The position numbers were made by a program, and so were the translations under genes. The notes beneath the pieces are model-generated. The model was given only the letters and a program-made list of their open reading frames with translations, had not been told where the DNA came from and did not search any database. DNA of 64,000 bases, taken from the IMG/VR virus record IMGVR_UViG_3300031454_000255, positions 1,779 through 65,778 of that record. The stretch is one strand, 5' to 3'. Shown here one piece after another: positions 6,257 to 39,510 of the stretch. Source of the stretch: a virus. Position 1 is the first letter of the stretch; every line of letters starts with the position of its first letter.

Positions 6257-7018
6257 ATGCTTTTAATTAAAAATTGCGAGACTTGTCACCAAGAGTTTTC
6301 TAGAAAAACAGGATACAGTTATAAATATTGGAACACGCAAAGATTCTGCTCTTCAAAATGCAGGTCTATTGCCATCGGTAAATTATTAAGCATAAAATTC
6401 AGTCAAAAAATAAATTTAGTCTGCCAATCCTGTCATATCTCTTTTTCAGTTTCACCCTGCCAATCGAAGCAAAAATATTGTTCGAGAAAATGCCAGCCGA
6501 GGTCGGTAAATGTTTTTGGGCATTGTCCGAATCGCGCAATAGTTTTTAGAACTTGCCCGAATTGCGAGAAAGTGTATAGCGGAAGTAATAATAGATATTG
6601 CTCAATACAATGCAAAAAGCAAGGAGTTAAAATTCAGAGAGCCGCAAAAGCAATGAAAGGCGAAGAACTTAAAATGGCAAAAAGAGTTTATGCCTCAAAC
6701 AGACGCTCAAAAATAATCGCAAACGGCGGCAGTTTTACAAAAGAGCAATGGAGATTAAAGTTAGAATATTTCGGCAATCGCTGCTATCTATGCAGTAAAA
6801 CCGTAACTGAAAAAACCGCCCATATCGAACATCGAATTCCTATCAGTAAAGGCGGCAAGTCTTGGGTTTCCAATCTTGCGCCCTCTTGCGCTAGCTGCAA
6901 TTTCAAAAAAAACCGTAAAACAGAAAAAGAATTTAGAGAGATTTACAATCTCAAATCCGCGCTAACTGTCGCTCGATTTCACCAACCCGTCGAAGCAATG
7001 CCCGCCGCTCATCAATAA
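6257..7018 (+). CDS. HNH endonuclease with N-terminal CxxC...FCSxxC zinc repeats
   Basis: C-terminal CYLC...HIEHRIPISKGGKSWVSNLAPSCASCNFKK; AT-rich and antisense to the tail operon. Confidence 0.85.
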   Translation: MLLIKNCETCHQEFSRKTGYSYKYWNTQRFCSSKCRSIAIGKLLSIKFSQKINLVCQSCHISFSVSPCQSKQKYCSRKCQPRSVNVFGHCPNRAIVFRTCPNCEKVYSGSNNRYCSIQCKKQGVKIQRAAKAMKGEELKMAKRVYASNRRSKIIANGGSFTKEQWRLKLEYFGNRCYLCSKTVTEKTAHIEHRIPISKGGKSWVSNLAPSCASCNFKKNRKTEKEFREIYNLKSALTVARFHQPVEAMPAAHQ

Positions 7019-7118
7019 GCCTTTGCTTTTTTGGTTTTTGGGAGTCAACAATTTTCCGCCTTAATAAACGCTTTTTCTCTTCGATAATAACTGGAGTGTT
7101 AGAATCTAAGTTATCCAC
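6951..7118 (-). CDS. Small basic protein, 55 aa (peptide family copy 1; not in ORF track)
   Basis: Manual translation from GTG: MDNLDSNTPVIIEEKKRLLRRKIVDSQKPKKQRLIDERRALLRRVGEIERQLARI. Start overlaps the stop of 7111..7572. Shares NLDSN and RR...EI.R.L with 35533..35730. Confidence 0.6.
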   Translation of the reverse strand: MDNLDSNTPVIIEEKKRLLRRKIVDSQKPKKQRLIDERRALLRRVGEIERQLARI

Positions 7119-7572
7119 CGTTCTTTAACCACCTTAATATCGCGCCATCTAAAGACTCTCCGTCTTCAATGTCAATTTCAAATGTCGAATTCGAGAGCGT
7201 GAAAGACGCGCCCGATAATTCTTTGCGATAGGTGCGCTTTATTTCCGACACATCCGTCATCAGCCGTTTGTAGGAACGCCCGCGAAACGTCACGCCGTCT
7301 GTTTTTGCGAATCCCATTAAAAAGTTGGGATTTTGAGGGCAAGGACAAAAACCCACAACGGAAGAATTTAAAACGCTAGCAGTTTCTGTAACTTGAGTTT
7401 GATTTTCTGTAACCGGAATTGCATTTTCTGTAACTATCACTTGCGCTGTTTGGCAAGCGCAAAGCGAAGGAAATGTGTCACTTTTGTACAATTCTACCAC
7501 CCACGATTGCCTTTTAGCAGTCGCGTTGCCAGAGGTGAGGACAGTGAGCAAATTGTCAGAAACGGTTTGCAT
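7111..7572 (-). CDS. Minor tail protein; probable N-terminal half of the split tail-tip gene
   Basis: MQTVSDNLL...GVTFRGRSYKRLMTDVSEIKR...ASFTLSN resembles the start of siphovirus tail-tip/hub proteins. The continuation (FEGLICVIRILDR) begins the 6056 ORF. Confidence 0.55.
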   Translation of the reverse strand: MQTVSDNLLTVLTSGNATAKRQSWVVELYKSDTFPSLCACQTAQVIVTENAIPVTENQTQVTETASVLNSSVVGFCPCPQNPNFLMGFAKTDGVTFRGRSYKRLMTDVSEIKRTYRKELSGASFTLSNSTFEIDIEDGESLDGAILRWLKNGG

Positions 7573-7582
7573 TGATTTTGAG

Positions 7583-10321
7583 TTATGCCGCGACGTGAGT
7601 GACCGTGCCGTCGGCGTTGAATACCAATTTACGCCCGTCAATCGCCCAACCAATCTGCGGCTGTGTTGAAACAAGATGAATCACGCCGGTCGCCGCATCG
7701 CGGTAAACCATCATTCCGTGACCGTTTGCTTCAATTAATTCAAGCTGCGGTCGACCGCCGTCCGGTGAAACAATGCTGCGAACCGGTTGTTTCTTATTAA
7801 CAAAGTTCGTTGCCCGGCTGTTGTATTCGGGGGCATTAGCTAAAAGTGGATCGAGAACGTCCCGCTGGTAGCGGTTGCGGGATTCAATGTAACTGCCGCG
7901 GTCGCTCCGCGTGATAAAATCCGAAACCGAACCGGCAGACCATCGCGTCGCGTTATGGGTAGCCAAATCGCTTCCGCCCGCTTCCGGTCGATTGAGAAAG
8001 TAGTCATTCGCGCTGATAATGCCCGCGCCCGCGCCCGGCACGTCTTCAAATGTGCCGTAAGTCGGACCGCAAACATAAAGATTATCGTGAGTGATAAAGG
8101 TCATAGCCGCGCCGAAAAACACTTTCGACTGAACCAAGGTGCCGCCTTCGACGATAAAACCGCCGCGAGTAAACGCGCCGCCCGCTTTATTCAGGAAAAA
8201 CTCCATTCGTTCATCTTGCCCGCCATTAACACGAATTGTATTAAAGACGTTTGTGCTTCTGATAAATGTCGTTCCGTTTGCCACTCTGCCCGTCACGGGC
8301 GAATATGCCGATCCTAAAGTACCGATCGTGTGATGCGAGTTGATTTCCAAATAGCCCGCTTCCAAAACATCGTAAGCGATGCCGCCGTCCGGCACATAGG
8401 AAAACGGCGTGTTGAATATAACCGAGTTATTTACAGAATTAGACCGATAGCCGATTGAATTAAGATCGAAAATCGGTTCATTAAAAACCATATTTTCGAC
8501 TTCCATATCCGTTCCCGATGTCGGGTAATAATCGACGCCGACGCCCGCGCCTTTAAACCAGCAGCGATTGTAAACAACATTAAAAATCGGATTCATACCG
8601 GTTAATAAAATTAACGACGTGCCGGTTGTCGATACCGATTCAAGACGCATATCTGAAAAGACGTTGTTTTTCCATTGCGGGTCGGTATTGGCGGCATCTG
8701 ATTGAATCTTAAACAGGGATGTTCCGGCCAGCATTGACCGAAAGCCGGTCGTTCTCTGACTTCCGCCCTCCATCATTATGCCCTGCGGCATCGTATGCCC
8801 GCCGTTTGTCTGCCACATTCCGTCCGGAACGTAACCCCGCGTGCCGGGTCTTAAAGCTGCAATCCAGCTATCTATCGCCGCCGTATTCTGCGCGGTCGTG
8901 CCGCCGCCGGAAATGTAATTCCCTAAATTAACAACCGGCATTCCGGCTTTCGATTGAACGTAAGTAGTCAAGGACGCGTTATCTGCCGCCGCGCCGCCGA
9001 GAGTCGCAAAAGTTGACGTACCCGTGCCGCTGCCAGCCGGACCGGTCGCACCCTGAATTCCTTGCGGTCCCTGCGCTCCGGTCGCGCCTTTGATGTTGGC
9101 GACAACCGAGTAACTGCCGCTCGTTTGTCTGTAAACGTCGCCGTTCAGGTTATTAAGCCAGAAATCACCGTCGACATTATTGGTTGGCGGTGCGCCGCTA
9201 CCGGCTCGCCAAACGGCTCCGGGAGCGCCTGCTGGTCCAACCGTTCCGGTGCCGGTGCCTGAGCCCGCCGGACCCGTTGCGCCTTGAATTCCCTGCGGTC
9301 CTTGCGCGCCTGCTGCACCTTTAATATTAGCGACGACCCCGTAGTTGCCGTTCGTTTGTTTATAGACATCGCCATTCAAATTATTTAACCAGTAATCGCC
9401 GTTAGCGTGATTGGTTGGCGGAGGACCATCACCATTGCGCCAAACGGCGCCGGGAGTTCCCGCCGCGCCCTGCGGTCCGGCTGCACCGCTCCCCGACGCG
9501 GCAAACAGTCCGTTAAGTCGGGCGGCTAAAGAATTGCCCGTGTCCGGTGAGATAACTGCCGATGCCTGTAATTCGTTGGGCGCGACACCTGTTCCGAGCA
9601 TCCGAATCGAGGTAGTATCGGTATGCAAAACGCCTGATGTTCCGCTGCCCGTTCCCGCCGCGCCCTGGTAGTTTTTCCACAGTCCGGCGAAATCCGCCGC
9701 CGCCGGTGCATTGATTGCCGCTGCGCTCGTTTTGATAGCAATATAGTTTTTCGCCGCGCTGAAGGTTGTCGTAAAACCTGTGCCGTTTGCGTCGTCGGCA
9801 TAAGCGATATAAATATAAGCCGGAATGCCCTTTGCGCCTTTAATATTGGCGACGACTTGATACGAGTTAGGACCGCCAAGCTGCTTGTAGACGTCGCCGT
9901 TCAAATTGTTGAGCCAGTAATCGCCGTCGGCGTGATTAGTCGGCGGCGGACCGTCCCCATTGCGCCATACCGTTCCTGTACCGCCCGGACCGCCTGCCGG
10001 AATCGTATATGTTCCGATGCCGTTTAAGAATTTCAATGCGTCATTCGGCAGCTTCGGCGCGAAACCGTGCTTTGCCGTCGACACGTCATTGGTTACAACA
10101 TCGGTAATTGCAAGCGAAACATCAGTTGCCGTGCCGCTTCCGCCGCCGCCGATTATGTTCCAGCCCGAATTTGACGAATTACGAACTTTTCGCGTAATTG
10201 GTGATGTCGACGTGTCGTTCCATTCGATGCCGGCGCGAATCAGACTGCCCGTCGGCTCCGTCGCCTGGTTATACGCGCTCGGGTGAAGCGAATTCAATTC
10301 GTGATGTTCTATAAATGCCAT
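7583..10321 (-). CDS. Tail fibre/spike with collagen-like repeats and C-terminal beta-helix (pectate-lyase-like) domain
   Basis: GAQGPQGIQGATGPAG repeats, three VWRxGxGxPPTN..DGDYWLNNLNGDVY modules, and the GGGTTAQNTAAIDSWIAAL...YVPDGMW beta-helix start. Confidence 0.8.
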   Translation of the reverse strand: MAFIEHHELNSLHPSAYNQATEPTGSLIRAGIEWNDTSTSPITRKVRNSSNSGWNIIGGGGSGTATDVSLAITDVVTNDVSTAKHGFAPKLPNDALKFLNGIGTYTIPAGGPGGTGTVWRNGDGPPPTNHADGDYWLNNLNGDVYKQLGGPNSYQVVANIKGAKGIPAYIYIAYADDANGTGFTTTFSAAKNYIAIKTSAAAINAPAAADFAGLWKNYQGAAGTGSGTSGVLHTDTTSIRMLGTGVAPNELQASAVISPDTGNSLAARLNGLFAASGSGAAGPQGAAGTPGAVWRNGDGPPPTNHANGDYWLNNLNGDVYKQTNGNYGVVANIKGAAGAQGPQGIQGATGPAGSGTGTGTVGPAGAPGAVWRAGSGAPPTNNVDGDFWLNNLNGDVYRQTSGSYSVVANIKGATGAQGPQGIQGATGPAGSGTGTSTFATLGGAAADNASLTTYVQSKAGMPVVNLGNYISGGGTTAQNTAAIDSWIAALRPGTRGYVPDGMWQTNGGHTMPQGIMMEGGSQRTTGFRSMLAGTSLFKIQSDAANTDPQWKNNVFSDMRLESVSTTGTSLILLTGMNPIFNVVYNRCWFKGAGVGVDYYPTSGTDMEVENMVFNEPIFDLNSIGYRSNSVNNSVIFNTPFSYVPDGGIAYDVLEAGYLEINSHHTIGTLGSAYSPVTGRVANGTTFIRSTNVFNTIRVNGGQDERMEFFLNKAGGAFTRGGFIVEGGTLVQSKVFFGAAMTFITHDNLYVCGPTYGTFEDVPGAGAGIISANDYFLNRPEAGGSDLATHNATRWSAGSVSDFITRSDRGSYIESRNRYQRDVLDPLLANAPEYNSRATNFVNKKQPVRSIVSPDGGRPQLELIEANGHGMMVYRDAATGVIHLVSTQPQIGWAIDGRKLVFNADGTVTHVAA
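9090..9970 (-). repeat. Three dispersed ~40-aa repeats plus duplicated collagen-like spacers within the fibre gene
   Basis: Repeat consensus VWRNGDGPPPTNHA(D/N)GDYWLNNLNGDVYKQ...Y.VVANIKGA; synonymous differences between copies are visible in the DNA. Confidence 0.9.
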
Positions 10322-12864: not shown

Positions 12865-13995
12865 CTAACTCGGTGTCGCGCCCAAATCGTCGGCGACCTG
12901 CATTAAAATTTGCAGCACGTCTTCGGTTTGCGCCGCATTAACATCTAAAGTTTTCAAAGTAAGACCGCCCGCGATTGAGTAATCGGCAAAGGTGCGATTC
13001 ACAATTTTGTCTTCGGTGACGGTGCGGGCAAAATTTATAATTTTCACTAAGTCGTTGTAATCAATGTTGAAATTTACCGTTCTGGTTACTGCGAAAGCAC
13101 CGGAATATCCGGTCAAAGAAGTTCCCGCCTGCAAATCGGTGATTAAAGTTCCGGTATAAGCCCTCAAATCGCTCAATTGACCGTCCGTTTCATTCAGAGC
13201 TTTGAGGCTAAACGGATTCGTGATTGTGTAGCCTGACAAAGCCGCGCCGCCGCCCGGGGTGTTTGCCGGATTAACGGCAATGGTGAACGATTTATCGATT
13301 GCCGCGCTCCCACCGGCGTCCGTCACTCTGATAACGGTTGAGTAACCCGAGCCTTGCGGATTGGAAATCGTCAGCAGTCCGGCGGGCGTCGGCGGCGCGT
13401 TCAGATTGCCCGCCACGCCCGCAAACGTATAAGGCGGAGTGCCGCCCGCCGCTTGAAACTGATAAGTGTACGACACGCCCGTCGTCGCTGCGGGAAGCGC
13501 AGACGGCGAAGTAAAAGAGAGCGCAGACGGCGATGGTGTCGGCGTTGGTGTCGGCGCGGGCATAACCCCGACCGCGCCCAAATACGGAACCTCGAAATCA
13601 TTCGCTCTGCTTCCTGCATACGGATCGCAGATGATCGTAATCGTGAGCGTCGGGAGCCACGATTTATGTCCTTCGTGCGGGAAATCAAAGAATTCATAAC
13701 GACAGCCCTCGATAACCAGCCCTCGTTTTTGAGTAAACGGAAACGTCAGGGACTTTTGCCGTTCATTGTAATGATTGACGAAAATCGCTAAATTATCGAC
13801 ATCCGCCTGCCGCCTTAAATCAAACTGAAACACTCTGTGCCATCTCTGCGGCGCGACATCGTTCAGACGGTTGAAGGCTTTGCCCTGGTCTTCGTAAGTA
13901 TGCGTGGCGGTCACGGCTTGCCAGTCAGCCGGTTCTTTCCGGTAGTGAAAAGTCGGCTGATTAATTGGCGGGTAAAATGGATTCGTTGCTGGCAT
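12865..13995 (-). CDS. Distal tail-like protein with a Pro/Thr linker and a putative Ig (He_PIG-like) domain
   Basis: Directly follows the tape-measure gene; PTPTPTPSPS linker, then LPAATTGVSYTYQFQAAGGTPPYTF...VIRVTDAGG. Confidence 0.6.
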   Translation of the reverse strand: MPATNPFYPPINQPTFHYRKEPADWQAVTATHTYEDQGKAFNRLNDVAPQRWHRVFQFDLRRQADVDNLAIFVNHYNERQKSLTFPFTQKRGLVIEGCRYEFFDFPHEGHKSWLPTLTITIICDPYAGSRANDFEVPYLGAVGVMPAPTPTPTPSPSALSFTSPSALPAATTGVSYTYQFQAAGGTPPYTFAGVAGNLNAPPTPAGLLTISNPQGSGYSTVIRVTDAGGSAAIDKSFTIAVNPANTPGGGAALSGYTITNPFSLKALNETDGQLSDLRAYTGTLITDLQAGTSLTGYSGAFAVTRTVNFNIDYNDLVKIINFARTVTEDKIVNRTFADYSIAGGLTLKTLDVNAAQTEDVLQILMQVADDLGATPS

Positions 13996-16900
13996 TAACC
14001 GTCCACCGTCCTTAAAATTAATCCGTGTAAATCGCCCCTGTTCGAGACGTTATTGCTGACGACGCCCAAAATATGCGAGTCATTCGATTTGGCGATGATA
14101 TTTACCGTATGAACGACTTGCTGCGGTGCGTTGCGTGTTGTTTCCCGTCGTTTGTCTTCGGATTCGCCGCTCGAAAAAGCCGTCCCGCCATTGCTCGAAC
14201 CGCTTCTGCCTTGTGTCGTTTTTATTTCACCATTCGAGCCGCTTGATATTTGGGACTCTTTCTTAAACGAATTCGCTGAATTTTGGTTTGAGCTTCCCGC
14301 TAATGCTCGCCCCGCTAATGCAGTCCCAACAGCAAGAGCCGCCCAAAGCCCCGCTGAGATAAAAGCGTGACCCGCCGCCGCAAAATTACCTTCTGCCAGA
14401 TTCAAAAATCCAAGTGCTGTTGCGTAAAGAGCTTTGACCGTTGCCACGCCTGCGATGTGCGCGAGTTCGGCGGCAAGAGCCTGTTTAAGAGCCTTTCCGA
14501 CGCTTCCGCCGTATAACGCCCATTGCTGAATAGCGTTGCCGACGGCGTTAGTCATACCTTCAAAAGCGCCGACAGCAATATCGCCAAACGCCGATAATGT
14601 ATCGCCAAAACCGCGTATACCGTCTTGTTTTTCGAGCAGCTTTGTTAGTCCGGTAGTAAACGCGCCGAAAAACCCGCTTTCCGCGCTCGTATCAGTAATT
14701 TCTTTGCCAACTCCGTCACGGATTCTTTTTAATTGGTCTTGGAAATCCTGTTCGGAAATCTTGGTTTTATTTTTATAAAGTTCATCAATCGCCGCTTTTT
14801 GTTCGGCTTCGTTTATCGCGCCTTTGACTCTTTCAGTCGCGGCATTGTGTTCAAACTCAATCGCTTCGGCATCGCTTGTGTGCTTTTCGGCGGCGATTTT
14901 TGTTTCAAAATCATAAAGTTCACGCAAAGCAGCAATCCGCGCCTTACCGAAACTGGAATTAACTCTTGTCTCTAAATCTTCTCGTTTTGAATCGTTTTGA
15001 ACTTTTTTCAGTTCTGCGTCTGCTTTTTTGACGGCAACAGTCAATTGACTAAGATTCGCGCTGGCTTTTTTTGATGCCTCGTCGCTTGCTTCAGTTTCTT
15101 TGTTGATAGCTTGGGTAACTAAAGTTGAAGTGGCAGTGCGCTGCGTCGAAAGGGAAGTTTCGAGAACGGCAACTCTATTTTTTGTCTCAAGCTGCTTAGC
15201 CGGTGATAAATCCTTATTGAGCGCAAGCCGTTTGGTTAATTCGAGTTCGTCACGAATTGCATCCTCTTTTATTTTTTGTTCGTCACGAATTCGAGAGGCT
15301 TCGCGCTGATTACTCAAAGTTGCGAAATTCGCGGCTTCGGCTAATCGCTGCTTATTACTCGCCTCATATCTTTCAAGAGTGAATTTATATTCATCTTCGG
15401 CAATCGCTACGCGCTTATTTGCCGCCGTTTGAGTTTCCTTGACGGATTCCTTTTGCGCGTCGGCAATTAGTTTTTCGTTTGCCTTTATGCGCTTCGAGCT
15501 TTCATCATTGATAGCGTCAATTGACGTTCGTTCATCCGTTCGGATTGCTTTTCTTGCCGTCGGATTTTTTTCACGACCGGCTTTTACGTCAAACTCATTC
15601 GCGGTAAGTTGAATTAATTTTGCGACAAATTGTCTCTCGTTTTCAAGGTAATTTTCACGGAATTTTTCAGCCGTGACAGCGCGATTTTCAAAATTATCTC
15701 TTGTGAGTCCGTCTAATGTTTCGTAGCCTTTTTTGAACTGTTCAATAGTTGCGGTATTTAACTTTTCAACCGCGTCAAGTTGTTCTTTTTCTGCTTTTTC
15801 GCGTTCCTTTTTTGCTTTTTCGGATTCTTCCCGCTGGTTGTCAAGCGGAGGCAAAAACGGCGAATTCGTGTTCACGCTTCCGTTCGGATTAGGCGTATCA
15901 GTTAAATTCGGAAGCGTATTGTCTGCTTTCGGCGCGGGCGCTCCGCCCGCCAAACCTTGTTTTATTCCCTCAAATATCGCCGCTCCGATTGCCATACCCG
16001 CCCGAATCAATTCCGGCACTAGCTTCAAGAGCGTGAAAGGGAGTTTAACGAATTGTTCAACAGCAAAAGCGATTCCTAAAGTGACTGCTTTGCCGAATGC
16101 GACTAATGCTTCCGTGCCGTACTGAAATAAAGCCGTGCCTAAAAGTTTCAGAATCTTGGAACTAGAATCAAGAATGGTTGTAAAAATCCGCACGGAAACT
16201 TCAACCGCTTTTGTAATTATGCCTTTGAAGGTTTCCCACGCGCCTGACCAGTTGCCGTTAATTAACTGCATTGCTAGTTTGACAACGCCTTGGATTAAAT
16301 CAACACCAGCCGATATGATTCCTTTAATACCGTTCCAAGTGGTAGAAACAATATCGGTAATTTGTCCGCCGTAATCTTTCCAGAAACCGCGGACGACTTC
16401 CAAAAAACCCTTAACAATGTTTTTAACCGCCTCCGATACGGTAGAAACGGTTTCTTGAATTAACGGATAATTGTCTTTCCAAAAAGCTACGATGTCAGCA
16501 ACGACGGATTGCGTTAAATTACTAATGACGCTCATCGCCGATTCAATTACAGATGAAACGGCATCGAAAATCTCTTTTGTAATATCACGGATGCCGCCGA
16601 AATTTGTTTCCCACGCTTCGTAAACGGCGAATGATGCCGCTGTCAGTAATCCGATAACACCAACAATACCCGCCACTACCGGCAGAATAGTCGATAAGCC
16701 GCCCAACGCCGTTATTGCGCCGCCGATAGCGGTTATACCTGTAATTACCGAACCGATTACAACTAGCGCGGGCGCGAGCGCGGCAAGAAAACCGCCGACG
16801 GCAACGATAATCGTTTTCAAAGTTGGTGAAAGCGAACTAAAAGCATTGGAAAGCGTTTCAATATACGGCGATATTTTCTCTATCGCCGGAACGACGGCAT

Positions 16901-17720
16901 TCAAAATTATTTCACCGAGCGGCGCAAGCGCGACATTTGCCCGCTCAAATCCTTTTGCCAATTTGACCGTTAAGTTATCGGTGATGTTTCCGACACGCGG
17001 GTCTTTATCAACGGCATCACTCAAACCGTTGAGAAAGCTGTCGAGTGTTAATTTTCCTGATTCTTTTAACTCTTTTAATTTTGAAGTGTCATTTGTTTTA
17101 AAAGCTGATTTTAAAAGCTGGTCAAAAATCGGAACTTGTCCAATTGCTTCTCTAATATCGCGCGTGTTGAAATCTTTAGAGAAAATTTGAACAAGATTCC
17201 GATTGAATTTTTCGCCATCCTCAATCTTAAAAGCCGCGTTTAATTTCCCAATCGACGCGATGATTTTATTAATTGATTCGTCGGCAATCCCGCCGATACC
17301 CTTAAATTGAGCGAAAGTATTGAGAGCGTCTTTTTGCAGAACGCCGACTGAATTATTAGCAAGGCTTCGGAGTTCGGCAATCTTTTTGTTGGCTGTATCG
17401 GCGTCGCCGACGAGCGCAATCATTTTCGTTCTGACGGCATCGAGTTCTAACGCCGCTTTTACGCCAAGCCCGCCGATTGCCAAAAGCGGCGCGGTTAAAG
17501 CAAGTGATAATTTCGTGCCGACGCTGGTGATTGACGCGCCGATTTTGCCGAACGATTCCGAAAGTTGGTTGCCGCCCGCCGTTAAATGATTAAAATTGTT
17601 TTGGATTTGATTGACTTGAACATTTATCGTTTGCGCGAGTTGGCTAATTGCCGTCGCCGCGCCCGCCGTATTTGCGTTTACGTTAAATGTAAGCCCAACA
17701 TTTGAGTTGCCAAAAGCCAT
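13995..17720 (-). CDS. Tail tape-measure protein 1 (1241 aa)
   Basis: Lies between the chaperone gene and the distal tail gene; tape-measure-type N-domain, aromatic-spaced hydrophobic repeats (WETNFGGIRD, FWKDNY, WSGAWE) and a long coiled coil. Confidence 0.9.
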   Translation of the reverse strand: MAFGNSNVGLTFNVNANTAGAATAISQLAQTINVQVNQIQNNFNHLTAGGNQLSESFGKIGASITSVGTKLSLALTAPLLAIGGLGVKAALELDAVRTKMIALVGDADTANKKIAELRSLANNSVGVLQKDALNTFAQFKGIGGIADESINKIIASIGKLNAAFKIEDGEKFNRNLVQIFSKDFNTRDIREAIGQVPIFDQLLKSAFKTNDTSKLKELKESGKLTLDSFLNGLSDAVDKDPRVGNITDNLTVKLAKGFERANVALAPLGEIILNAVVPAIEKISPYIETLSNAFSSLSPTLKTIIVAVGGFLAALAPALVVIGSVITGITAIGGAITALGGLSTILPVVAGIVGVIGLLTAASFAVYEAWETNFGGIRDITKEIFDAVSSVIESAMSVISNLTQSVVADIVAFWKDNYPLIQETVSTVSEAVKNIVKGFLEVVRGFWKDYGGQITDIVSTTWNGIKGIISAGVDLIQGVVKLAMQLINGNWSGAWETFKGIITKAVEVSVRIFTTILDSSSKILKLLGTALFQYGTEALVAFGKAVTLGIAFAVEQFVKLPFTLLKLVPELIRAGMAIGAAIFEGIKQGLAGGAPAPKADNTLPNLTDTPNPNGSVNTNSPFLPPLDNQREESEKAKKEREKAEKEQLDAVEKLNTATIEQFKKGYETLDGLTRDNFENRAVTAEKFRENYLENERQFVAKLIQLTANEFDVKAGREKNPTARKAIRTDERTSIDAINDESSKRIKANEKLIADAQKESVKETQTAANKRVAIAEDEYKFTLERYEASNKQRLAEAANFATLSNQREASRIRDEQKIKEDAIRDELELTKRLALNKDLSPAKQLETKNRVAVLETSLSTQRTATSTLVTQAINKETEASDEASKKASANLSQLTVAVKKADAELKKVQNDSKREDLETRVNSSFGKARIAALRELYDFETKIAAEKHTSDAEAIEFEHNAATERVKGAINEAEQKAAIDELYKNKTKISEQDFQDQLKRIRDGVGKEITDTSAESGFFGAFTTGLTKLLEKQDGIRGFGDTLSAFGDIAVGAFEGMTNAVGNAIQQWALYGGSVGKALKQALAAELAHIAGVATVKALYATALGFLNLAEGNFAAAGHAFISAGLWAALAVGTALAGRALAGSSNQNSANSFKKESQISSGSNGEIKTTQGRSGSSNGGTAFSSGESEDKRRETTRNAPQQVVHTVNIIAKSNDSHILGVVSNNVSNRGDLHGLILRTVDG

Positions 17721-17725
17721 TTAGT

Positions 17726-17969
17726 CTACCAAATTTCAGGTTCTTGTGTATCGTTAGTGTTTTCGGGCGACCCCATAAGCATTGAACTTAAAACTTCAAA
17801 GCGTTTTGTTTCGCGTTCGTTATCAAAACGAATTAGCCGAGCCGTGCAAGCCGCGTCAAAACCATAGGCACGAACCCCACTGGTTACCTTGTGCCGAACG
17901 CTTGCCGGAACGCCCGTTTCACGCATTACCAACGCAATTAAAAGCAGGTAGTCATCATTTTCCAGAAAA
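17726..17969 (-). CDS. Tail assembly chaperone T-frame (GT extension) 1
   Basis: +1 frame relative to G, entered at TTT TCT: FLENDDYLLLIALVMRETG...FDAACTARL..FDNER. Confidence 0.7.
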
Positions 17970-18398
17970 GGTATCCAGCCCGTCTTGGACTGATTCACCT
18001 CCGCCCGTATTCGCCCAATTCAGAAGAAATATAAAATCTTCGCTTGTGATTTCTTCTGCCGAAATTTCATTGTCAGCTTGAGGGTTATCAACAATTAGCG
18101 GGTCAACGCAGATATGACGAAGTATTTTCGCTGAAAACTCAATTGCCTTAATTTGTTCTTTTGCCGAAAGCTGTTTATAAGCATCTTCTTCGCTTAATCC
18201 GTCAGATTTCGCTTGCTGCATTTTCTCAACTAGCGCGAGCGGCAACGTACCAGAAACTAAAAAGTTTTCTAAATTCGGCAGGCGCAAAACCCAAATCATT
18301 CCAGACGGCGATTCGACTTCAAAAGTTTTTTGAGACGCTTGCTGTTTTGTTTTGAGTCGCCGGTATTCGGCAACTGACATTCGTTTTTTTATTTTCAT
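17955..18398 (-). CDS. Tail assembly chaperone G 1
   Basis: Upstream of the tape-measure gene; paralog of 24749..25300 and 31743..32219 (SPSGM.W, DP.I...P..D.EI, L.NW..TGG). Confidence 0.75.
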   Translation of the reverse strand: MKIKKRMSVAEYRRLKTKQQASQKTFEVESPSGMIWVLRLPNLENFLVSGTLPLALVEKMQQAKSDGLSEEDAYKQLSAKEQIKAIEFSAKILRHICVDPLIVDNPQADNEISAEEITSEDFIFLLNWANTGGGESVQDGLDTFSGK

Positions 18399-18409
18399 TT
18401 GTGGTGTCG

Positions 18410-18575
18410 GCAAAAAGAAAAACACCCGCTCAAGAAATGAAATAAATCCATTTCTTGAGCGGGTGTTTAGTTCCTTTTCGGAAGTGCAGACCCTTTTATT
18501 AAATTTTATGCGTTTAGACGAAAAGCGTTTTGCCTAAACTGTAAGAAGTATAATAGTTTTTTTGATTATCTACAA
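18410..18575 (-). promoter_or_regulatory. Leader B: promoter, GGGTCTGCAC box, small hairpin, strong terminator-like hairpin
   Basis: TTGTAG-17-TATACT; GGGTCTGCACTTCC-GAAAA-GGAA; ACACCCGCTCAAGAAATG...CATTTCTTGAGCGGGTGT-TTTTCTTTTT. Confidence 0.75.
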
Positions 18576-18588
18576 ACAAATTTTTTGT

Positions 18589-18972
18589 TTATCTGATTTC
18601 CCAGGCAATGCGCCATTTTCGGCTTTCACGAAACAATTTCATTTGTATGGATTCTTTCGAGCCACCATTAAATAAAACATCGCCGATAACGCCCGCTGTT
18701 TTAAAATCAATTAATTTGTTTCTGAGATTAAAACCTTTCAAGCCGCCTGCGCTTTTGCAAGATTTATTCCAAACCTCAAATGCTAAGTCTATAACCGATT
18801 TGTGCAGACGAACCGTTGAAGAAAGTTGCTGTTTTGCTTTGATAAAATCGCCGCCACAAATATCTTGATAAAATGTTTTCACAGTATCGGACGGGCGCGG
18901 CACAGCGAATATATTGATATTCAAACTTAAAGTAAAAACAAACGCCAAAAACAATCCGAAAAACATTTTCAT
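18589..18972 (-). CDS. Secreted/periplasmic moron protein (NTF2-like fold suspected)
   Basis: Signal peptide MKMFFGLFLAFVFTLSLNINIFA; PSDTVKTFY...KWRI pattern. Confidence 0.65.
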   Translation of the reverse strand: MKMFFGLFLAFVFTLSLNINIFAVPRPSDTVKTFYQDICGGDFIKAKQQLSSTVRLHKSVIDLAFEVWNKSCKSAGGLKGFNLRNKLIDFKTAGVIGDVLFNGGSKESIQMKLFRESRKWRIAWEIR

Positions 18973-19010
18973 TTTCGGATTGTAGCTTTAAAGATTTGAG
19001 TTTGAAAAGA

Positions 19011-19205
19011 CTAAATTTGAAGTTCCTTGACCCGCCGCGCCTCTAACGCTTCTAAAACCAAATCCATATAAGCCGGAATTTCAAGCCGACCCGTTTCGTA
19101 GCCTGAAACAGTATTTGAAGCAAAGCCGAGAATTTTAGCTAATTCGCTTTGTGTTAATCCTAACCTTTCGCGCCGTTTTTTTAGTTCGGTTTTTTCCATT
19201 CTCAA
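19011..19205 (-). CDS. XRE-family helix-turn-helix regulator
   Basis: LKKRRERLGLTQSELAKILGFASNTVSGYETGR; paralog of 56481..56720. Confidence 0.85.
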   Translation of the reverse strand: MRMEKTELKKRRERLGLTQSELAKILGFASNTVSGYETGRLEIPAYMDLVLEALEARRVKELQI

Positions 19206-19340
19206 AATATATTCTAAGTATAGAAATAAATCAAATAGATATGATTTTATCTCTCTGTTAGATTGACAACTATATTTTAGATATAGTAAGATATATCTAC
19301 GTTAGAGATAACGAATAAAACAAAAGGACGGAAAACGGAA

Positions 19341-19499
19341 ATGCAGAAAATTAAAATCAACGGCTACACGGTGACAATCTTCAACCACTACAACGGAACG
19401 CAGTTATTTATTAACGATTCAAAAGGCGTTCAAATCTACGCTCATAAAGTTACGGGCGATGCGATGCTGCGAGCTTTGGAAATAATCGGACAAAACTAA
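19341..19499 (+). CDS. Small hypothetical protein, 52 aa (not in ORF track)
   Basis: Manual translation MQKIKINGYTVTIFNHYNGTQLFINDSKGVQIYAHKVTGDAMLRALEIIGQN; purine-rich RBS; same position as 33191..33391 in the twin module. Confidence 0.6.
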   Translation: MQKIKINGYTVTIFNHYNGTQLFINDSKGVQIYAHKVTGDAMLRALEIIGQN

Positions 19500-19505
19500 A
19501 AACGA

Positions 19506-19545
19506 AAAGGTTTAGATAAGTTCGCGCTTACCTAAACCTTTCTTT
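19506..19545 (+). terminator. Intrinsic terminator-like hairpin
   Basis: AAAGGTTTAGATAAG-TTCGCG-CTTACCTAAACCTTT followed by CTTT. Confidence 0.6.
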
Positions 19546-19571
19546 AATCCCTTCGGGAAGGAATCATCAAT

Positions 19572-20087
19572 ATGGACAAGATAACACGAAAGAAATTAGA
19601 AAAGAAACACGGACAAATAAAAATTTGCTTTACCTGCGGAAAACCCAAAGCCCTTTTTGATTTTTATAAATCTTCATATTGGGTAAGCAACAAAGGCAAT
19701 CCGGTTGTTAAATACGCCGTTCACCGAAATTGTAAGATATGTGAACGAAAACAAACAACTTCCAAACGAACCTCGCCCGCAAAAACTCGCCAACCGCGCC
19801 CGATTATGAGTTTTGAAGATACTCAAATCGCAAAGCGCAATAATTTATTAAAACGTAAATACGGCATTACGCTTGACCGATACAACGAATTTTTAGAACG
19901 GCAAAACGGCGGCTGCGCGATTTGCGGCGAACCGCCGACAACTCAAATTTTAGTTGTTGACCATTGCCACAAATCCGGCAAGATTCGCGGTCTGCTCTGT
20001 CATAAACATAATTCGGCAATCGGATTCTTAAACGACAGCCCAGAACTAATCAAAAAAGCAAACGAGTATTTGGGAGAGGCGAAATGA
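19572..20087 (+). CDS. Endonuclease VII-like HNH nuclease
   Basis: LKRKYGITLDRYNEFLERQNGGCAICG...LVVDHCHKSGKIRGLLCHKHNSAIG. Confidence 0.85.
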   Translation: MDKITRKKLEKKHGQIKICFTCGKPKALFDFYKSSYWVSNKGNPVVKYAVHRNCKICERKQTTSKRTSPAKTRQPRPIMSFEDTQIAKRNNLLKRKYGITLDRYNEFLERQNGGCAICGEPPTTQILVVDHCHKSGKIRGLLCHKHNSAIGFLNDSPELIKKANEYLGEAK

Positions 20088-20524
20088 AAATTTGTAGCAA
20101 CTGCCGACTACCAAAACCGCTAAAAATGTTCGTCGTCAAAAGATGCGGTGTTTGGGCTTATATCGAGAGATGTAAGCCCTGCCGCGCCGCCTCGAAACCT
20201 TTCCGCAAGTTCTGGAAACCATTAACGCCGGAACAGCGCGAACGAAATCGAATGGCGAGCCGCGCCAGAAAATTAAATTGCTCTGTGATTATTCCTTTTA
20301 CAAAAAGAGAAATAATTTTTCGTGACGGGTTGAATTGTTATTTATGCGGGAAATTATTGACTGAAAAAACCGCAACTATCGACCACGTTAAGCCGTTATC
20401 GCGCGGCGGTTTTCATTGTCCGAATAACGCAAAAATCGCCTGCAAACCTTGTAATCAAAAGAAAACTAATAAAGAATTATCGGAGTGCTGTGATGAATTT
20501 AATCAAAAAACTAACATTGCTTAA
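20084..20524 (+). CDS. HNH endonuclease
   Basis: IFRDGLNCYLCG...TIDHVKPLSRGGFHCPNNAKIACKPCNQKK. Confidence 0.85.
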   Translation: MKICSNCRLPKPLKMFVVKRCGVWAYIERCKPCRAASKPFRKFWKPLTPEQRERNRMASRARKLNCSVIIPFTKREIIFRDGLNCYLCGKLLTEKTATIDHVKPLSRGGFHCPNNAKIACKPCNQKKTNKELSECCDEFNQKTNIA

Positions 20525-22025
20525 AATTGAAGGTGAATTGGTCAAAACTTGCAATCGCTGTAAAAGACATTTACCATCGCATTTTTTTTCCAAAATAAAC
20601 AATCCTAAAAGAGAGTGCGAGAAAGACGGGCTTGCAATTAGTTGTTTTGATTGTGCAAGACTGCGTTCGGCGAAATGGCGAGAAGAAAAAAAAGGTGCAG
20701 TTGGTTTGGTTGCTTTAACCCAAAAGAAAATTGAACTTGAAAGATATTTAGTTGCCAATCCGCACCTGTTCTGGTGTGTTAAAGGTCAACACGTTTCTGA
20801 AAAAGAAAACGTTACCATAGCAAATCGAAATTCGAGTGGTTTAGGTTCAATTTGTAAAAATTGCAAAAAACAATTTTACAAAATAAATCCTGAGTATTCC
20901 AAAATTTACTACCAAAACAATAAAGCGCAAGTATTGGAAGCAAGCAAAGAATACAGTAAAAACAATCAAGCAAAAATTGCGAAAATGAGAAAGAATTGGG
21001 TTTTGGCAAACCCTGATAAAGTTAGAGCTTCAATAGAAAGAAGCGTTAAAGTTAGAGCGGAAAAAAGAAGAAAAGTAAGTGAAGAATTAAAGTCCATTCG
21101 TATCTTAAAGAAAAAAACAATCAAAGAAAAAACTTGCTCTAAGTGTAATAACATTCTTTCTATTGAAAACTTTCGTAGCAATACAAATATATGTAAAGAT
21201 TGCAAAAAAAACGCTGATTATGAAAGAATAATGAAAAAATTACCCGTTACTGTTGCTGAAGAGAGATGCCAAAAACACACTGAAAAAAAAGCTCGTGACA
21301 AATATATTTTAGCAAACCCTAGTATTAAATGGTGTGAGAAAGGAAAGCATTTTGTGTGTCGAAGTGAATTTTATAGTGCAGCAAAACGTAAAGATGGTTT
21401 AATGACGACTTGTCAGTCTTGTTTGAAAAAATACATCAATCAAAATATTGAAGTAGTTAAAAAACGGCGAAAATCTTACTATGCCCGAAACCGAGATTTG
21501 ATTATTAAACGAAGTTATTTAAATTACAAACAAAACAAATATAAAATATTAGGACGACAAAAAGCATATAATCAGGTAAATAAAGACACTATTCAACAAA
21601 GAAAAAAACATTATTACCAAAATAACTTTGCTAATAATGAGGAATACCGAGCCAAAACGCGGGCATATCGTGAAAAACACGCCCAAAGAATTTCTGTATA
21701 TAAACAACGAGGATTCGCAAAACTTCGCTCCGTTCGGCAAAACATTAAAGGCGAATTCTCGCTCGACCAATGGTTGTTAAAAATTGAGTTTCACGGTTAC
21801 TGTTGTTATCTTTGCGGTAAATCACTCCAGGGTAAAAAGTTTCATCTTGAACATAGAATACCATTAAGCAGAGGCGGAACAAATTTCTTGGCGAATGTTG
21901 CGCCCTCGTGTGTTAGGTGTAACCTAAGCAAAGGGAACAAAACCGAATTTGAATTTCGGGAATGGAAAAAACAAAACCCAAAACTACGCAGTAAAACCGA
22001 ACTTATTTCCGCCTTCCGCAATTAG
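20490..22025 (+). CDS. Large HNH endonuclease with multiple CxxC zinc modules
   Basis: Repeated CxxC modules, an internal repeat (YLVANPHLFWCVKGQHV / YILANPSIKWCEKGKHFV), and C-terminal CYLCG...HLEHRIPLSRGG...PSCVRCNLSKG. Confidence 0.85.
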   Translation: MMNLIKKLTLLKIEGELVKTCNRCKRHLPSHFFSKINNPKRECEKDGLAISCFDCARLRSAKWREEKKGAVGLVALTQKKIELERYLVANPHLFWCVKGQHVSEKENVTIANRNSSGLGSICKNCKKQFYKINPEYSKIYYQNNKAQVLEASKEYSKNNQAKIAKMRKNWVLANPDKVRASIERSVKVRAEKRRKVSEELKSIRILKKKTIKEKTCSKCNNILSIENFRSNTNICKDCKKNADYERIMKKLPVTVAEERCQKHTEKKARDKYILANPSIKWCEKGKHFVCRSEFYSAAKRKDGLMTTCQSCLKKYINQNIEVVKKRRKSYYARNRDLIIKRSYLNYKQNKYKILGRQKAYNQVNKDTIQQRKKHYYQNNFANNEEYRAKTRAYREKHAQRISVYKQRGFAKLRSVRQNIKGEFSLDQWLLKIEFHGYCCYLCGKSLQGKKFHLEHRIPLSRGGTNFLANVAPSCVRCNLSKGNKTEFEFREWKKQNPKLRSKTELISAFRN

Positions 22026-22182
22026 GGCAAGAATCAATTTTCAGCATCTTGTTGACCTTAGACAAGGATTTAATGATTTCACGCCGCAAATCCATCAATT
22101 CAGCGTTAGGCAATGAAGATGAATTTGCGGCAATGTTTACCCTAGCTACTGATTTAATTTCTTCGCTTTGCATTTGAGGCAT
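22003..22182 (-). CDS. Small protein, 59 aa (peptide family copy 2; not in ORF track)
   Basis: Manual translation MPQMQSEEIKSVARVNIAANSSSLPNAELMDLRREIIKSLSKVNKMLKIDSCPNCGRRK; starts 5 nt after the stop of the truncated tape-measure gene. Confidence 0.65.
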   Translation of the reverse strand: MPQMQSEEIKSVARVNIAANSSSLPNAELMDLRREIIKSLSKVNKMLKIDSCPNCGRRK

Positions 22183-22187: not shown

Positions 22188-22706
22188 TTAAATACCCGCA
22201 AAAACCGCCGCCGCGCCGACTGCTGCGACACCGGCAACGGCAATCGTTGCGGGATTTGCTAAAGCGAGAAGGTTTGAGCCGACGGCACCGATTGAACCGG
22301 AAAAATCCGTAACTAACGCGCCCGCGATTTTACTTGATGAACCTAAGCCCGTGATTGAGCCGAGAAATGAAGAAATGGCGGCAGATGATTGGGGACTGGC
22401 GACGCCGCTAATTGTTCTGGCGAGTTTTGCCGCTTCATTTTCGGCGACTTTGACGCCTTGCGAAAGATTTTGGGCGTGAGAGATTAAATTGCGGGCGTCG
22501 GTTGCTAATTGTTCAGCGTTTGCCGCGCCGCGCGATTTAGCGGCAACCGCTTCGGCTAGCGACTGAGACGCGACTTTCGAGGCTTCGGCGGCAACCTTTT
22601 TCTGTTCGCTGACGGCAAGCGCGGCGGTCTCTCTGATTTCCTTTTGGGCATCAGAGCCGTTTGCAGAAATTTTGAATAAAAGATTTACCGCGTCAGAAAA
22701 TCCCAA
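22188..22706 (-). pseudogene. Truncated tape-measure gene (N-terminal 172 aa only)
   Basis: MGFSDAVNLLFKISANGS matches the N-terminus of 27685..31542 (MGFSDAASLTFKILGDNS); Ala-rich sequence that ends at the HNH insert. Confidence 0.7.
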
Positions 22707-23383: not shown

Positions 23384-23485
23384 TCACCTTTTTTATCATT
23401 TAAAGATTGAAATTGAAAATTAAATTTGGGTAAAATCTTTCATTTATACTTGCAAACTATACCATTTTATAGTACAGTTTATTTA

Positions 23486-23836
23486 ATGAATGAGACGCTT
23501 TTACATTTTATCGAAACATCGGCTTTCACGAAAAGAATTGACAAACTGGCGAGCGTTGAAGTTTTGATTGCTTTGCAAAACGATTTGCTGATTGACCCGA
23601 AACGCGGCGCGGTTATTTCAGGCACGAACGGCGCGAGAAAAGCGCGTGTTTCCAATAAACAGCAAAACATCGGTAAAAGCGGTGCGTTTCGTTACATTTA
23701 CATTTATTTGGAAAAAGCCGAAACGATTTATTTGTTAGTGATTTTCGGGAAAAATGAAATGGACAATTTAGACAAAGGCGAACGAAACGATTTAGCTAAA
23801 TTAGTTAAAATTCTAAAAGATAAATACGGAGAATAA
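23486..23836 (+). CDS. RelE/HigB-family toxin
   Basis: FIETSAF...PKRGAVISGTNGARKAR...GKSGAFRYIYIY...IYLLVIFGKNEMDNL; upstream of an HTH antitoxin. Confidence 0.85.
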   Translation: MNETLLHFIETSAFTKRIDKLASVEVLIALQNDLLIDPKRGAVISGTNGARKARVSNKQQNIGKSGAFRYIYIYLEKAETIYLLVIFGKNEMDNLDKGERNDLAKLVKILKDKYGE

Positions 23837-23837
23837 A

Positions 23838-24134
23838 ATGGATAAACAATTATTTGCAGATTTGAAAGAATCGTTAGGCGAAGCGATTGAACACGCGAGC
23901 GGCAAGCGAAACCTAAAAACAACGACTTTGCCGCGCCCGCCGAAAGTTATGACGCGAATGGATATTGCGGTATTGCGAGGCAAAATGAACGCCTCGCAAG
24001 CCGTCTTTGCTCGCTGTTTGAACGTATCGGTAAAAACCGTGCAGGCGTGGGAGCAAGGAAAAAAACCAAACGGCGCGGCGCTGAAATTGCTTTCAATTGT
24101 CGAAAAGAATCCGTCAATCTTGTATGAAAATTAA
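23838..24134 (+). CDS. HigA-type HTH antitoxin
   Basis: LRGKMNASQAVFARCLNVSVKTVQAWEQGKKPNGAALKLL. Confidence 0.85.
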   Translation: MDKQLFADLKESLGEAIEHASGKRNLKTTTLPRPPKVMTRMDIAVLRGKMNASQAVFARCLNVSVKTVQAWEQGKKPNGAALKLLSIVEKNPSILYEN

Positions 24135-26756: not shown

Positions 26757-26760
26757 TTAC

Positions 26761-27285
26761 TTAAAAGTTCGAGCGATAATTCTCTTCCGTCATTACAAAT
26801 GTCGTGTCCGTCCGCACATCGCCTAAAATCTCTTTTTGCATCACGTCGCCGATTCTTTTCAGTTGCCCGTCCGACAAATCAATCAGCGGACGGGCTGGCA
26901 AGTTGCGCGGCGCATACCCGAAATGCTGCGCTTTAGCCTGAGGCGTGTTCGTTCCAAACGCGGCGTCGAGCTTGTTAATGACGGTGACGGTATGTTCACT
27001 TTCCCCGGTTAAAGATTTATAGGTTGCATCGGTTAATCGCTCTAAACTGACGAAACCTAAAAAACCTAATTTGCTAATCTTCCGCGCTTCGTATTTTGGA
27101 GATAACGGCTGCCATCTGCCGCTTTTGCCCGTCGCATTGTCCGACTGGTAATTGTTCTTTTCAATCTCAAAAAACGCTTTCTGTGCGGCACGAAAAGCCT
27201 TTGAAAAGTCGTCTAATCCTTTACGGACATTGCTAAAGTTCCGTATTAGATTTTCTTCACCTTCAACTTGAAAAATAATTTGCAC
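26761..27285 (-). CDS. Tail completion / virion morphogenesis protein (Mu G / P2 S-like)
   Basis: GRWQPLSPKY...FGTNTPQAKAQHFGY..RNLPARPLIDLS; GTG start with AGAGG RBS. Confidence 0.8.
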   Translation of the reverse strand: MQIIFQVEGEENLIRNFSNVRKGLDDFSKAFRAAQKAFFEIEKNNYQSDNATGKSGRWQPLSPKYEARKISKLGFLGFVSLERLTDATYKSLTGESEHTVTVINKLDAAFGTNTPQAKAQHFGYAPRNLPARPLIDLSDGQLKRIGDVMQKEILGDVRTDTTFVMTEENYRSNF

Positions 27286-27299
27286 TAAACTGACCTCTA

Positions 27300-27452
27300 A
27301 AACGAAAAACACCCGCTAAAAATGAACGGTTGTTCAAATCTAGCGGGTGTCGAGTTTCTAAAAAGAAAGTGCAGACCCTTCGTTAAAATTTTTACCTAAA
27401 GACGCGCTTTAAGTTCACTGTTAATTTACCGCAAAAAACAGAAATTAGCAAG
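27300..27452 (-). promoter_or_regulatory. Leader C: promoter, GGGTCTGCAC box, small hairpin, terminator-like hairpin
   Basis: TTGCTA-17-TAAATT; GGGTCTGCAC-TTTCT-TTTT-AGAAA; ACACCCGCTAG...TAGCGGGTGT-TTTTC. Confidence 0.75.
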
Positions 27453-38014: not shown

Positions 38015-38036
38015 TTCTCAAGTTCTCCTTTTATAT

Positions 38037-38441
38037 TTATGTTCTGGTTAAATGCAGTTTCGAGCCTGCAAGGTCAAAGCCTGCGATTTCGGCAGCCGTG
38101 TAAGCGCGACCTAAGTTGTCTTCGGCAATGTCTCTATTGACCGTACCGATTGTGCCGACACCGACCGGCTGCGCGACCGTTGCGGCGGCGATGTCTGCCG
38201 ACGAATTGGACTCGGCGACCTTGATCGGCTCAATCGTCACGCCGTAAGCGGGGACGCCTGTTCCGAGTAACGCGCCGACTTTTGAAAACGGAACGCCCGG
38301 TTTCAAATAACCTTTCGAGTCAACTTCGGCGGTCGTTAAAGCCGTGACAATGACATTAACCACGTCAGAGGCTAAGATTTTGCCGACGAATACGGGCGCG
38401 TGCGTAAAACCGCCGACTGTTTTCGTAAATGAAAGTGGCAT
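38037..38441 (-). CDS. Head decoration protein
   Basis: About 130 aa immediately upstream of the capsid gene; GYLKPGVPFSK motif. Confidence 0.65.
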   Translation of the reverse strand: MPLSFTKTVGGFTHAPVFVGKILASDVVNVIVTALTTAEVDSKGYLKPGVPFSKVGALLGTGVPAYGVTIEPIKVAESNSSADIAAATVAQPVGVGTIGTVNRDIAEDNLGRAYTAAEIAGFDLAGSKLHLTRT

Positions 38442-38456
38442 ATTATTCTCCTAAAA

Positions 38457-39158: not shown

Positions 39159-39189
39159 AAACTCCTTGAGTTTGTTTGAATTTAAAAAC

Positions 39190-39336
39190 AAAAAAAACGC
39201 CCGAAAAACGTGAACATTAAGTTCAAATCTTTCGAGCGTTCTACCTTTTCAGGCGTTCTACTCTAAACTGATTAAATTGTCTACGCACGGATGCGCTTAA
39301 CTAGAAATCTACATTATCTTTTCCGTAAAAGCAAGA
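39190..39336 (-). promoter_or_regulatory. Leader E: promoter plus terminator-like hairpin before the scaffold gene
   Basis: TTGCTT-17-TAGATT; AACGCTCGAAAAG...TTTTTCGGGCGTT-TTTTTTG; an upstream AACGCCTGA could pair with the 3' arm. Confidence 0.65.
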
Positions 39337-39345
39337 TAAATTTAT

Positions 39346-39510
39346 TCAAACTTTGCGTCCGCATTTACTACAAGTTTTAATCCCTAAGACGCGCGCCAAC
39401 TCCAGCATCACCGACACGGCGTTGCAGTAAGCGGCATAAAGACGCGAGCAGTTATCTTCTTTTTTCGGCACGTCTTTAGCTTTCGTTATTTTTATCGGTC
39501 TTTCAATCAT
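39346..39510 (-). CDS. Small protein, 54 aa (peptide family copy 4; not in ORF track)
   Basis: MIERPIKITKAKDVPKKEDNCSRLYAAYCNAVSVMLELARVLGIKTCSKCGRKV; ATGA-coupled to the MuF-like gene stop. Confidence 0.65.
   Translation of the reverse strand: MIERPIKITKAKDVPKKEDNCSRLYAAYCNAVSVMLELARVLGIKTCSKCGRKV

Follow-up and report, generated by a model that had tools for sequence, protein, structure and literature searches.

We analyzed a 64-kb stretch, here called the window, of IMGVR_UViG_3300031454_000255, a 66.4-kb provirus record in IMG/VR that came from a rock metagenome. The structural genes in the window (terminase, portal, scaffold, capsid, connectors, two long tape-measure-type genes, and tail genes) were nearly all on the minus strand, and this minus-strand run was broken up by short plus-strand islands that carried nuclease genes. 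A sequence-only reading of the window had proposed that four small open reading frames (ORFs) in this region belonged to one protein family. All four ORFs were found on the minus strand, as listed below. The E values are those obtained with a profile that was built from seven homologs outside the window and that excluded the window copies.

6951..7118, minus strand: copy 1, 55 amino acids (aa); GTG start and no ATG; helix motif only, without LGI..C..CG; E = 0.046
22003..22182, minus strand: copy 2, 59 aa; intact family member; E = 7.8e-20
35533..35730, minus strand: copy 3, 65 aa; helix and LGI kept, with RKEDLKIPNS in place of the cysteine (Cys) knuckle; E = 1.4e-9
39346..39510, minus strand: copy 4, 54 aa; intact helix and C..CGRK; E = 5.8e-9

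When it rested on the window alone, the family claim was shaky. The mutual identity of the four copies was only 19 to 26%, and the pairwise similarities had p values of 0.004 to 0.27 relative to shuffled sequences (0.004 to 0.013 for five of the six pairs). A leave-one-out profile of the window copies recovered only the copy at 35533 (E = 0.004). Homologs were also sought elsewhere and were found in other metagenomic phages: an exhaustive profile search, which covered 1.84 billion representative proteins, yielded seven outside homologs of 55 to 74 aa, and a word-index search yielded one more. The family was defined by these proteins (P0003, P0004, and P0006 to P0011). When the 1,502 six-frame ORFs of the window were ranked with the outside-only profile, the four copies occupied ranks 1 to 4, which indicated that they form one family. 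The membership of copy 1 was marginal because of its E value and because it lacked both an ATG and the LGI..C..CG motif.

The helix, R.LGI, and C..CGR motifs that the sequence-only reading had noted in scattered form were borne together by the outside homologs, whose consensus was L..LRR........LN..LGI..C..CG(K/R)K. The NLDSN and MIE N termini that it had also listed were not features of the whole family. Copies 2 and 3 contained the helix motif L..LRR........(L/V)N..L(G/K)I, copy 4 contained a variant of it (L..AYC...LA.VLGI), and copy 1 retained L..ERR...IE..LA. The C-x2-C-G-(K/R)-K knuckle was present in copies 2 and 4 and absent from copies 1 and 3, where an HNH gene abuts. Copies 2 and 4 look functional; copies 1 and 3 would have lost their knuckles to the insertion and are probably decaying. 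The nearest outside relatives were P0003 for copy 2 (77% identity), P0008 for copy 4 (39%), and P0004 and P0006 for copy 3 (34%). Each window copy thus had its nearest relative in another phage and not within the window, which indicated that the four had not arisen by recent duplication of one another.

All of the family members were basic proteins (54 to 74 aa, with isoelectric points of 9.2 to 10.9), and the sense frame was the only open frame in 12 of the 12 members. In the helix region of the P0010/P0011 pair, eight synonymous changes and one nonsynonymous change were counted. Judging from their sequences, the small ORFs are a coding family under selection. That the ORFs arose by chance or are untranslated scars of the junctions, and so make no protein, seemed very improbable. 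Such a view would fit with the lack of a Shine-Dalgarno sequence upstream of any window copy, the fact that the sequencing runs holding the window DNA were DNA runs only, and the missing ATG and marginal score of copy 1. However, the outside-only profile picked exactly these four ORFs, all of the members were open in the sense frame alone, and the synonymous changes in the helix exceeded the nonsynonymous ones. We also considered an antisense ORF or an opposite-strand omega-RNA as the cause of the conservation; this was rejected because the antisense frames of most members contained stops.

The predicted architecture of the small protein consisted of a disordered basic N terminus, one amphipathic helix, and a C-terminal Cys-x2-Cys-Gly-(K/R)-K knuckle. 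Specifically, AlphaFold2 with an 11-row alignment modeled a disordered N terminus, a single helix (residues 26 to 46 in copy 2), and a short C-terminal knuckle, with a mean predicted local distance difference test score of 76. A complex prediction for two copies and zinc scored 0.43 (best control, 0.30), which was neither for nor against dimerization. Pfam and PHROGs gave no match above threshold with the four peptides or the 11-member alignment, a PDB profile search gave chance matches only, an Atlas feature search gave no usable match, and Foldseek, queried with the AlphaFold2 model, matched nothing in the PDB. When viral, metagenome, and genome contigs were scanned for the C-terminal motif, only chance matches were obtained. 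The small-protein family is new to the databases, and it is rare. A similar architecture is that of PF02591 (Zn_ribbon_9), in which a coiled coil precedes a C4 zinc ribbon, much as the helix precedes the CxxC knuckle here. However, only one of the 11 members matched PF02591, at 19.2 bits (below the 29.1-bit cutoff), and with two Cys residues the family has half of such a ribbon. The most plausible guess is that the protein is a small adaptor that binds nucleic acids or other proteins. With one helix and one knuckle, it is small enough for quick tests of zinc, nucleic-acid, or nuclease binding.

A 58-aa ORF at L054:6424-6597, which starts with MSLKRPIKVKKLAEV, was located between portal-side genes and the leader of a scaffold gene. 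The N terminus of this ORF resembled those of copy 4, P0007, and P0008, but it had no Cys knuckle and no profile match. It may be a very distant relative of the family.

The small gene always ended a same-strand run of late genes, and its start usually abutted or overlapped the preceding stop. ATGA start/stop overlaps were observed for copies 3 and 4 and in L011, L013/L015, and L024; the other starts were a few bases from the stop. By this arrangement, the small gene closes a translationally linked run. The genes that precede the four copies in the window were as follows:

7111..7674, minus strand: 187-aa ORF whose stop overlaps the GTG start of copy 1; no homolog found
22188..22706, minus strand: tape-measure-like ORF, 172 aa, ending 5 nucleotides (nt) before copy 2; weak match to phrog_1272 (E = 9e-4)
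35727..35867, minus strand: truncated head-tail adaptor gene, 46 aa, whose stop overlaps the start of copy 3; 46% identity to residues 15 to 49 of the protein encoded at 26761-27312
39507..40188, minus strand: minor-head-type gene (phrog_24776) in two overlapping frames, 39739-40188 and 39507-39845, the second of which ends in the ATGA of copy 4

It had been claimed that every copy starts at, or within 5 nt of, the stop of a truncated, split, or frameshifted gene. The distances held for the ATGA overlaps at 35730 and 39510 and for the 5-nt gap at 22182, but copy 1 overlaps the preceding stop by 8 nt via the GTG at 7118. As for the damage, the 35727-35867 gene was a truncated paralog, phrog_24776 was in two frames, and the 22188-22706 ORF showed the weak tape-measure match, but the proposed split at 7111-7674 was unconfirmed. 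In the case of phrog_24776, the same two-ORF layout was present in L056 (5066-5512 and 5491-5757), so the arrangement may be normal and not damage; L055 had a single 209-aa ORF (4867-5493). The two frames could reflect a programmed frameshift that has been conserved or a split that has recurred. In the case of the 187-aa ORF, we found no relatives and no similarity to the N terminus of the G002 tail protein. With no homolog for this ORF, the label "split tail-tip gene" could not be confirmed. The 1224-aa ORF downstream begins about 60 residues "late" relative to the G002 tail protein. Rfam found no group I or group II intron or other family, which ruled out intron-split upstream genes.

At three loci (copy 4, L012, and L011), the small gene had no nuclease neighbor and was flanked by a minor-head gene and the structured scaffold leader. 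The order in L012 was terminase, portal, a 139-aa gene with no relatives found, small gene, a 136-nt spacer with the leader, scaffold, a 132-aa gene, and major capsid protein. Copy 4 had the same layout: portal, the phrog_24776 gene, small gene, a 154-nt spacer, and scaffold. P0008, the closest relative of copy 4, fills the same slot in L012, and the gene upstream of the small gene in L011 was a homolog of the L012 139-aa gene. These data placed the ancestral slot of the small gene after the portal/minor-head genes and ahead of the structured scaffold leader. The slot is variable, since in L055 four unrelated small ORFs lie between the minor-head gene and the scaffold leader.

The settings of copies 1 to 3 were different in that each was met by a plus-strand nuclease island:

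6257..7018, plus strand: island 1, a zinc-finger and HNH_5 nuclease gene (253 aa) that converges on copy 1
19572..22025, plus strand: island 2, genes for an EndoVII-like protein (171 aa), an HNH protein (146 aa), and a zinc-finger and HNH_5 protein (511 aa); converges on copy 2
33464..35543, plus strand: island 3, three genes (103, 164, and 107 aa) and an FCS-zinc-finger HNH_3 nuclease gene (327 aa); converges on copy 3

As the sequence-only reading had stated, the 3' ends of HNH genes overlapped three copies, by 68 nt (copy 1), 23 nt (copy 2), and 11 nt (copy 3). Copies 1 to 3 were positioned exactly at recombination joints, with the nuclease islands on one side. Copies 1 and 3, from which the Cys knuckle is gone, ended exactly at the abutting HNH genes.

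Similar arrangements were observed outside the window. In L010, a zinc-finger and TnpB gene on the opposite strand ended 60 nt from the small gene. In this 500-aa ORF (L010:386-1888, minus strand), an FCS zinc-finger array preceded a complete TnpB with helix-turn-helix, OrfB_IS605, and zinc-ribbon domains. Homologous arrays were encoded by the window HNH genes at 34560-35543 and 6257-7018, and the other genes of the L010 island were homologous to island 3 (window 33161-34263). The fusion arose either from a swap of nuclease modules on a common DNA-binding scaffold or from the in-frame insertion of an insertion sequence element. The three window nucleases and the L010 nuclease were mosaic relatives, with zinc-finger arrays or HNH_5 domains in common in differing combinations. 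In L015, there was a 20-nt overlap between the small gene and a DUF559 nuclease fragment. L009 had a canonical TnpB gene (L009:3271-4607) inside a homolog of the window gene at 35868-36239, of which a 52-aa remnant was left; the family member began 13 nt past the TnpB start, and another opposite-strand ORF converged on it downstream. Thus, the homing-type nuclease families found between conserved genes were HNH_5, HNH_3, and EndoVII in the window, TnpB in L010, and DUF559 in L015. The nuclease genes varied in presence and absence, being present at L010 and copies 1 to 3 and absent from L012 and copy 4.

Two comparisons placed the limits of homology at the small gene itself. L013 and L015 were 86% identical up to 5 nt beyond the small-gene stop and unrelated thereafter; in L013 the small gene was followed by an AT-rich stretch and then by opposite-strand accessory genes. 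Copy 2 and L024 shared a 145-nt stretch of DNA (92% identity) that began at codon 3 and ended at the first Cys codon, and both flanks were unrelated. This was the single pair with such a tract, and the L024 contig is 387 nt long. The results indicated that the repeated breakpoint is the DNA from the last codons of the small gene to just beyond its stop.

Based on this layout, we tentatively favor the idea that the small gene is a neighbor gene carried with free-standing homing nucleases, although we hold it to be somewhat short of probable. Free-standing homing endonucleases of phages cut hundreds of base pairs from their own genes and co-convert the DNA between (PMC2988022). The small gene would be situated between the nuclease gene and the likely cutting site, and copying of the nuclease gene would bring the small gene along (i.e., "intronless homing" with co-conversion). 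If the small gene is a co-converted neighbor, then copies 1 to 3 would lie at the left boundary of imported segments, which end in broken structural genes. Co-conversion would also account for each window copy being closer to the copy of another phage than to its siblings, and for a rare family being present four times in one nuclease-rich genome.

Several points weigh against this idea. The left joints of copies 1 to 3 are at most about 15 nt from the small-gene start, and ordinary co-conversion predicts no such precision. Homing itself was read from the layout of the genes. Only about eight outside homologs were available, most of them on contigs shorter than 5 kb, so the context statistics are thin and the contexts are not phylogenetically independent. 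The purifying selection on the small gene, together with the nuclease-free copies, shows that the protein has a function of its own, and it is one that the homing model does not name. Finally, the DUF559 fragment in L015 and the canonical TnpB gene upstream in L009 could merely reflect nuclease-rich genomes.

The same breakpoints might instead mark a passive, permissive site. According to this explanation, the small gene is simply an accessory gene that closes an operon, and the short untranslated gap that follows it is among the few spots in a densely packed late region that tolerate inserts of any kind. Copies 1 to 3 would have been placed by unrelated recombination events, and their adjacency to nucleases would have no meaning for function or targeting. 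The heterogeneity of the inserts (HNH islands, the zinc-finger and TnpB gene, DUF559, and the AT-rich stretch and accessory genes in L013) and the four unrelated small ORFs that fill the L055 slot are consistent with this explanation, which we consider unlikely but worthy of some weight. It leaves unexplained why a family member is found at the edge of three of the four window nuclease islands, why one genome has four copies of a very rare family, and why the pairing with a zinc-finger nuclease island was kept between the window and L010.

The sequence-only reading had called the small gene cassette-borne, which was supported in part. In favor of this claim, copies 1 to 3 were at joints, and the pairing of copy 3 with island 3 recurred in L010. 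The nuclease-free copy 4, L012, and L011 did not fit with it, and their occurrence indicated that the small gene is not intrinsically a cassette gene. A stronger form, in which the small protein would play an active part in a mobile cassette of two genes, its own and that of the zinc-finger nuclease, seemed improbable. In such a cassette, the small protein might serve as a targeting or restraining subunit, or its gene might be a portable landing site carried by the nuclease lineage. By entering late operons at new sites, the cassette could disrupt a structural gene and introduce a segment that replaces it.

A direct partnership with the nuclease, in which the small protein binds the neighboring zinc-finger nuclease and restrains it or helps target it, seemed distinctly improbable. 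Convergent pairing did recur four times with nucleases that share zinc-finger arrays, and, as judged by eye only, the C-terminal knuckle (I-K-T-C-x2-C-G) is similar to the first half of such a finger. On the other hand, the family members at L012 and copy 4 had no nuclease, the adjacent catalytic domains differed (HNH_5, HNH_3, TnpB, and DUF559), and the degraded copies 1 and 3 were the ones beside intact HNH genes. The suggestion that the small protein is a nuclease inhibitor found no support, as the neighboring genes carried three unrelated catalytic domains (HNH, TnpB/RuvC, and DUF559).

The favored reading, carriage with homing nucleases, can be compared to the free-standing seg and mob homing endonuclease genes of T4-like phages (PMC2988022). 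In both cases, nuclease genes are located between conserved phage genes, nuclease presence differs between close genomes, homology stops sharply beside the nuclease gene, and a short neighboring stretch travels, or in the window would travel, with the nuclease. In contrast to the seg and mob genes, the window nuclease genes are on the opposite strand, are within late structural operons, and encode FCS-type zinc-finger arrays; one relative has TnpB instead of HNH. The neighbor is also different, being a dedicated small gene family at several positions of one genome. What surrounds the family is a variant form of the mosaicism already known for homing nucleases; the family itself is what is new to databases. 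If the homing reading is true, selfish nucleases reshuffle phage structural modules, and a tiny conserved gene is the portable edge of the exchanged DNA. If the small gene is a bystander at a permissive site, the locus is an example of routine phage mosaicism. The locus documents HNH and TnpB catalytic parts swapped on one zinc-finger scaffold.

The structured leader mentioned above combined a GGGUCU-type box with a small hairpin and a GC-rich terminator, and it had covarying pairs; it may act as a 5' leader or as a 3' terminator. A covariance model was built from eight copies of the element, and five copies were present in the window:

6058..6164, minus strand: leader, 54.7 bits; next downstream of copy 1, directly past the HNH gene
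18407..18499, minus strand: leader, 78.9 bits; next downstream of copy 2
27294..27384, minus strand: leader found with the covariance model; preceded by an unrelated 72-aa ORF, not by a family member
32228..32317, minus strand: leader, 81.8 bits; next downstream of copy 3, past island 3 and the signal-peptide gene
39182..39270, minus strand: leader, 61.6 bits; between copy 4 and the scaffold gene

The statement that each copy lies upstream of a leader was correct in terms of gene order, but only copy 4 adjoined its leader (75 nt); the other three were 0.8 to 3.5 kb away. Outside the window, the leader directly followed the small gene at L011:393-481, L012:7061-7148, and L014:547-635, and it was upstream of the scaffold gene at L009:13-100. 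It was also upstream of the scaffold gene, with no family member, at L005:1345-1429, L054:7216-7294, L055:6238-6325, and L056:6444-6528 (L054, L055, and L056 were found via the portal gene and L005 via the capsid gene). An exact-motif scan for the leader gave two chance matches. A sigma-70 consensus scan of the leaders did not recover promoters that had been seen by eye, and we therefore make no promoter claim for the leaders.

These data bear on whether the small gene encodes a leader regulator, that is, a basic zinc-knuckle protein that acts on the promoter, leader, or terminator that follows, as an antiterminator or activator of the next operon. The small gene was 22 to 78 nt upstream of a conserved leader in four phages, the four copies and five leaders of the window were in matching order, and every family member was basic. 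The gene order is also like that of lambda Q, which is followed by the late promoter and terminator. However, alignable scaffold-gene leaders were present in L005, L054, L055, and L056, all of which lacked the family, and the leader at 27294-27384 followed an unrelated ORF. Thus, the leader does not need the protein, and the antiterminator or late-activator role that had been proposed lost most of its support. In addition, the leaders were alike even though the window proteins were just 19 to 26% identical, the leaders of copies 1 and 3 were intact despite the missing knuckle, and the promoters seen by eye failed the consensus scan. We regard a role in leader regulation as rather improbable.

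Known regulators of phage late genes provided two further points of comparison. The Ogr and Delta proteins of P2/P4 and the Com protein of Mu are phage proteins of about 60 to 70 aa that have CxxC motifs and are tied to late gene expression. These proteins have four Cys ligands, whereas the small-protein family has a single conserved CxxC; there was no sequence similarity between them in the Pfam, PHROGs, and PDB searches, and the small gene, unlike theirs, sits inside late operons. The lambda Q and N genes immediately precede a leader that contains an intrinsic terminator and is followed by late genes. Like these antiterminators, the small protein is small, basic, and partly disordered, and its gene is just upstream of a leader. 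In contrast, it has no homology to Q or N, it is far smaller than Q, and the leader occurs in relatives that lack the gene.

The assembly of the window was examined at the small genes. The junctions at copies 2, 3, and 4 were recovered in independent unitigs from two sequencing runs, without insertions or deletions. In one run, unitigs broke directly beside the 3' end of copy 2 (21968-21997), and a cluster of six single-nucleotide polymorphisms was observed within island 3 (33880-33955). The unitig break and the polymorphisms suggest that there is strain variation at the islands within the sample. A megablast search of GenBank phages with 8 kb of the window gave no match.

Two other features of the window were observed. 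First, a diverged pair of modules was located 13.8 kb apart, at 13995-19563 and 27685-33453. Both copies of the module contained the island promoter region, a signal-peptide gene, a leader, a chaperone gene, and a long tape-measure-type gene, and the pair had short direct repeats in common (73 to 90% identity). The 1285-aa tape-measure-type copy bore an SLT lytic transglycosylase domain. Second, in the tail gene region at 23426-24134 on the plus strand, a RelE-like toxin gene (slightly under the Pfam threshold) was followed by a helix-turn-helix gene, and this gene pair appears to be toxin-antitoxin-like.

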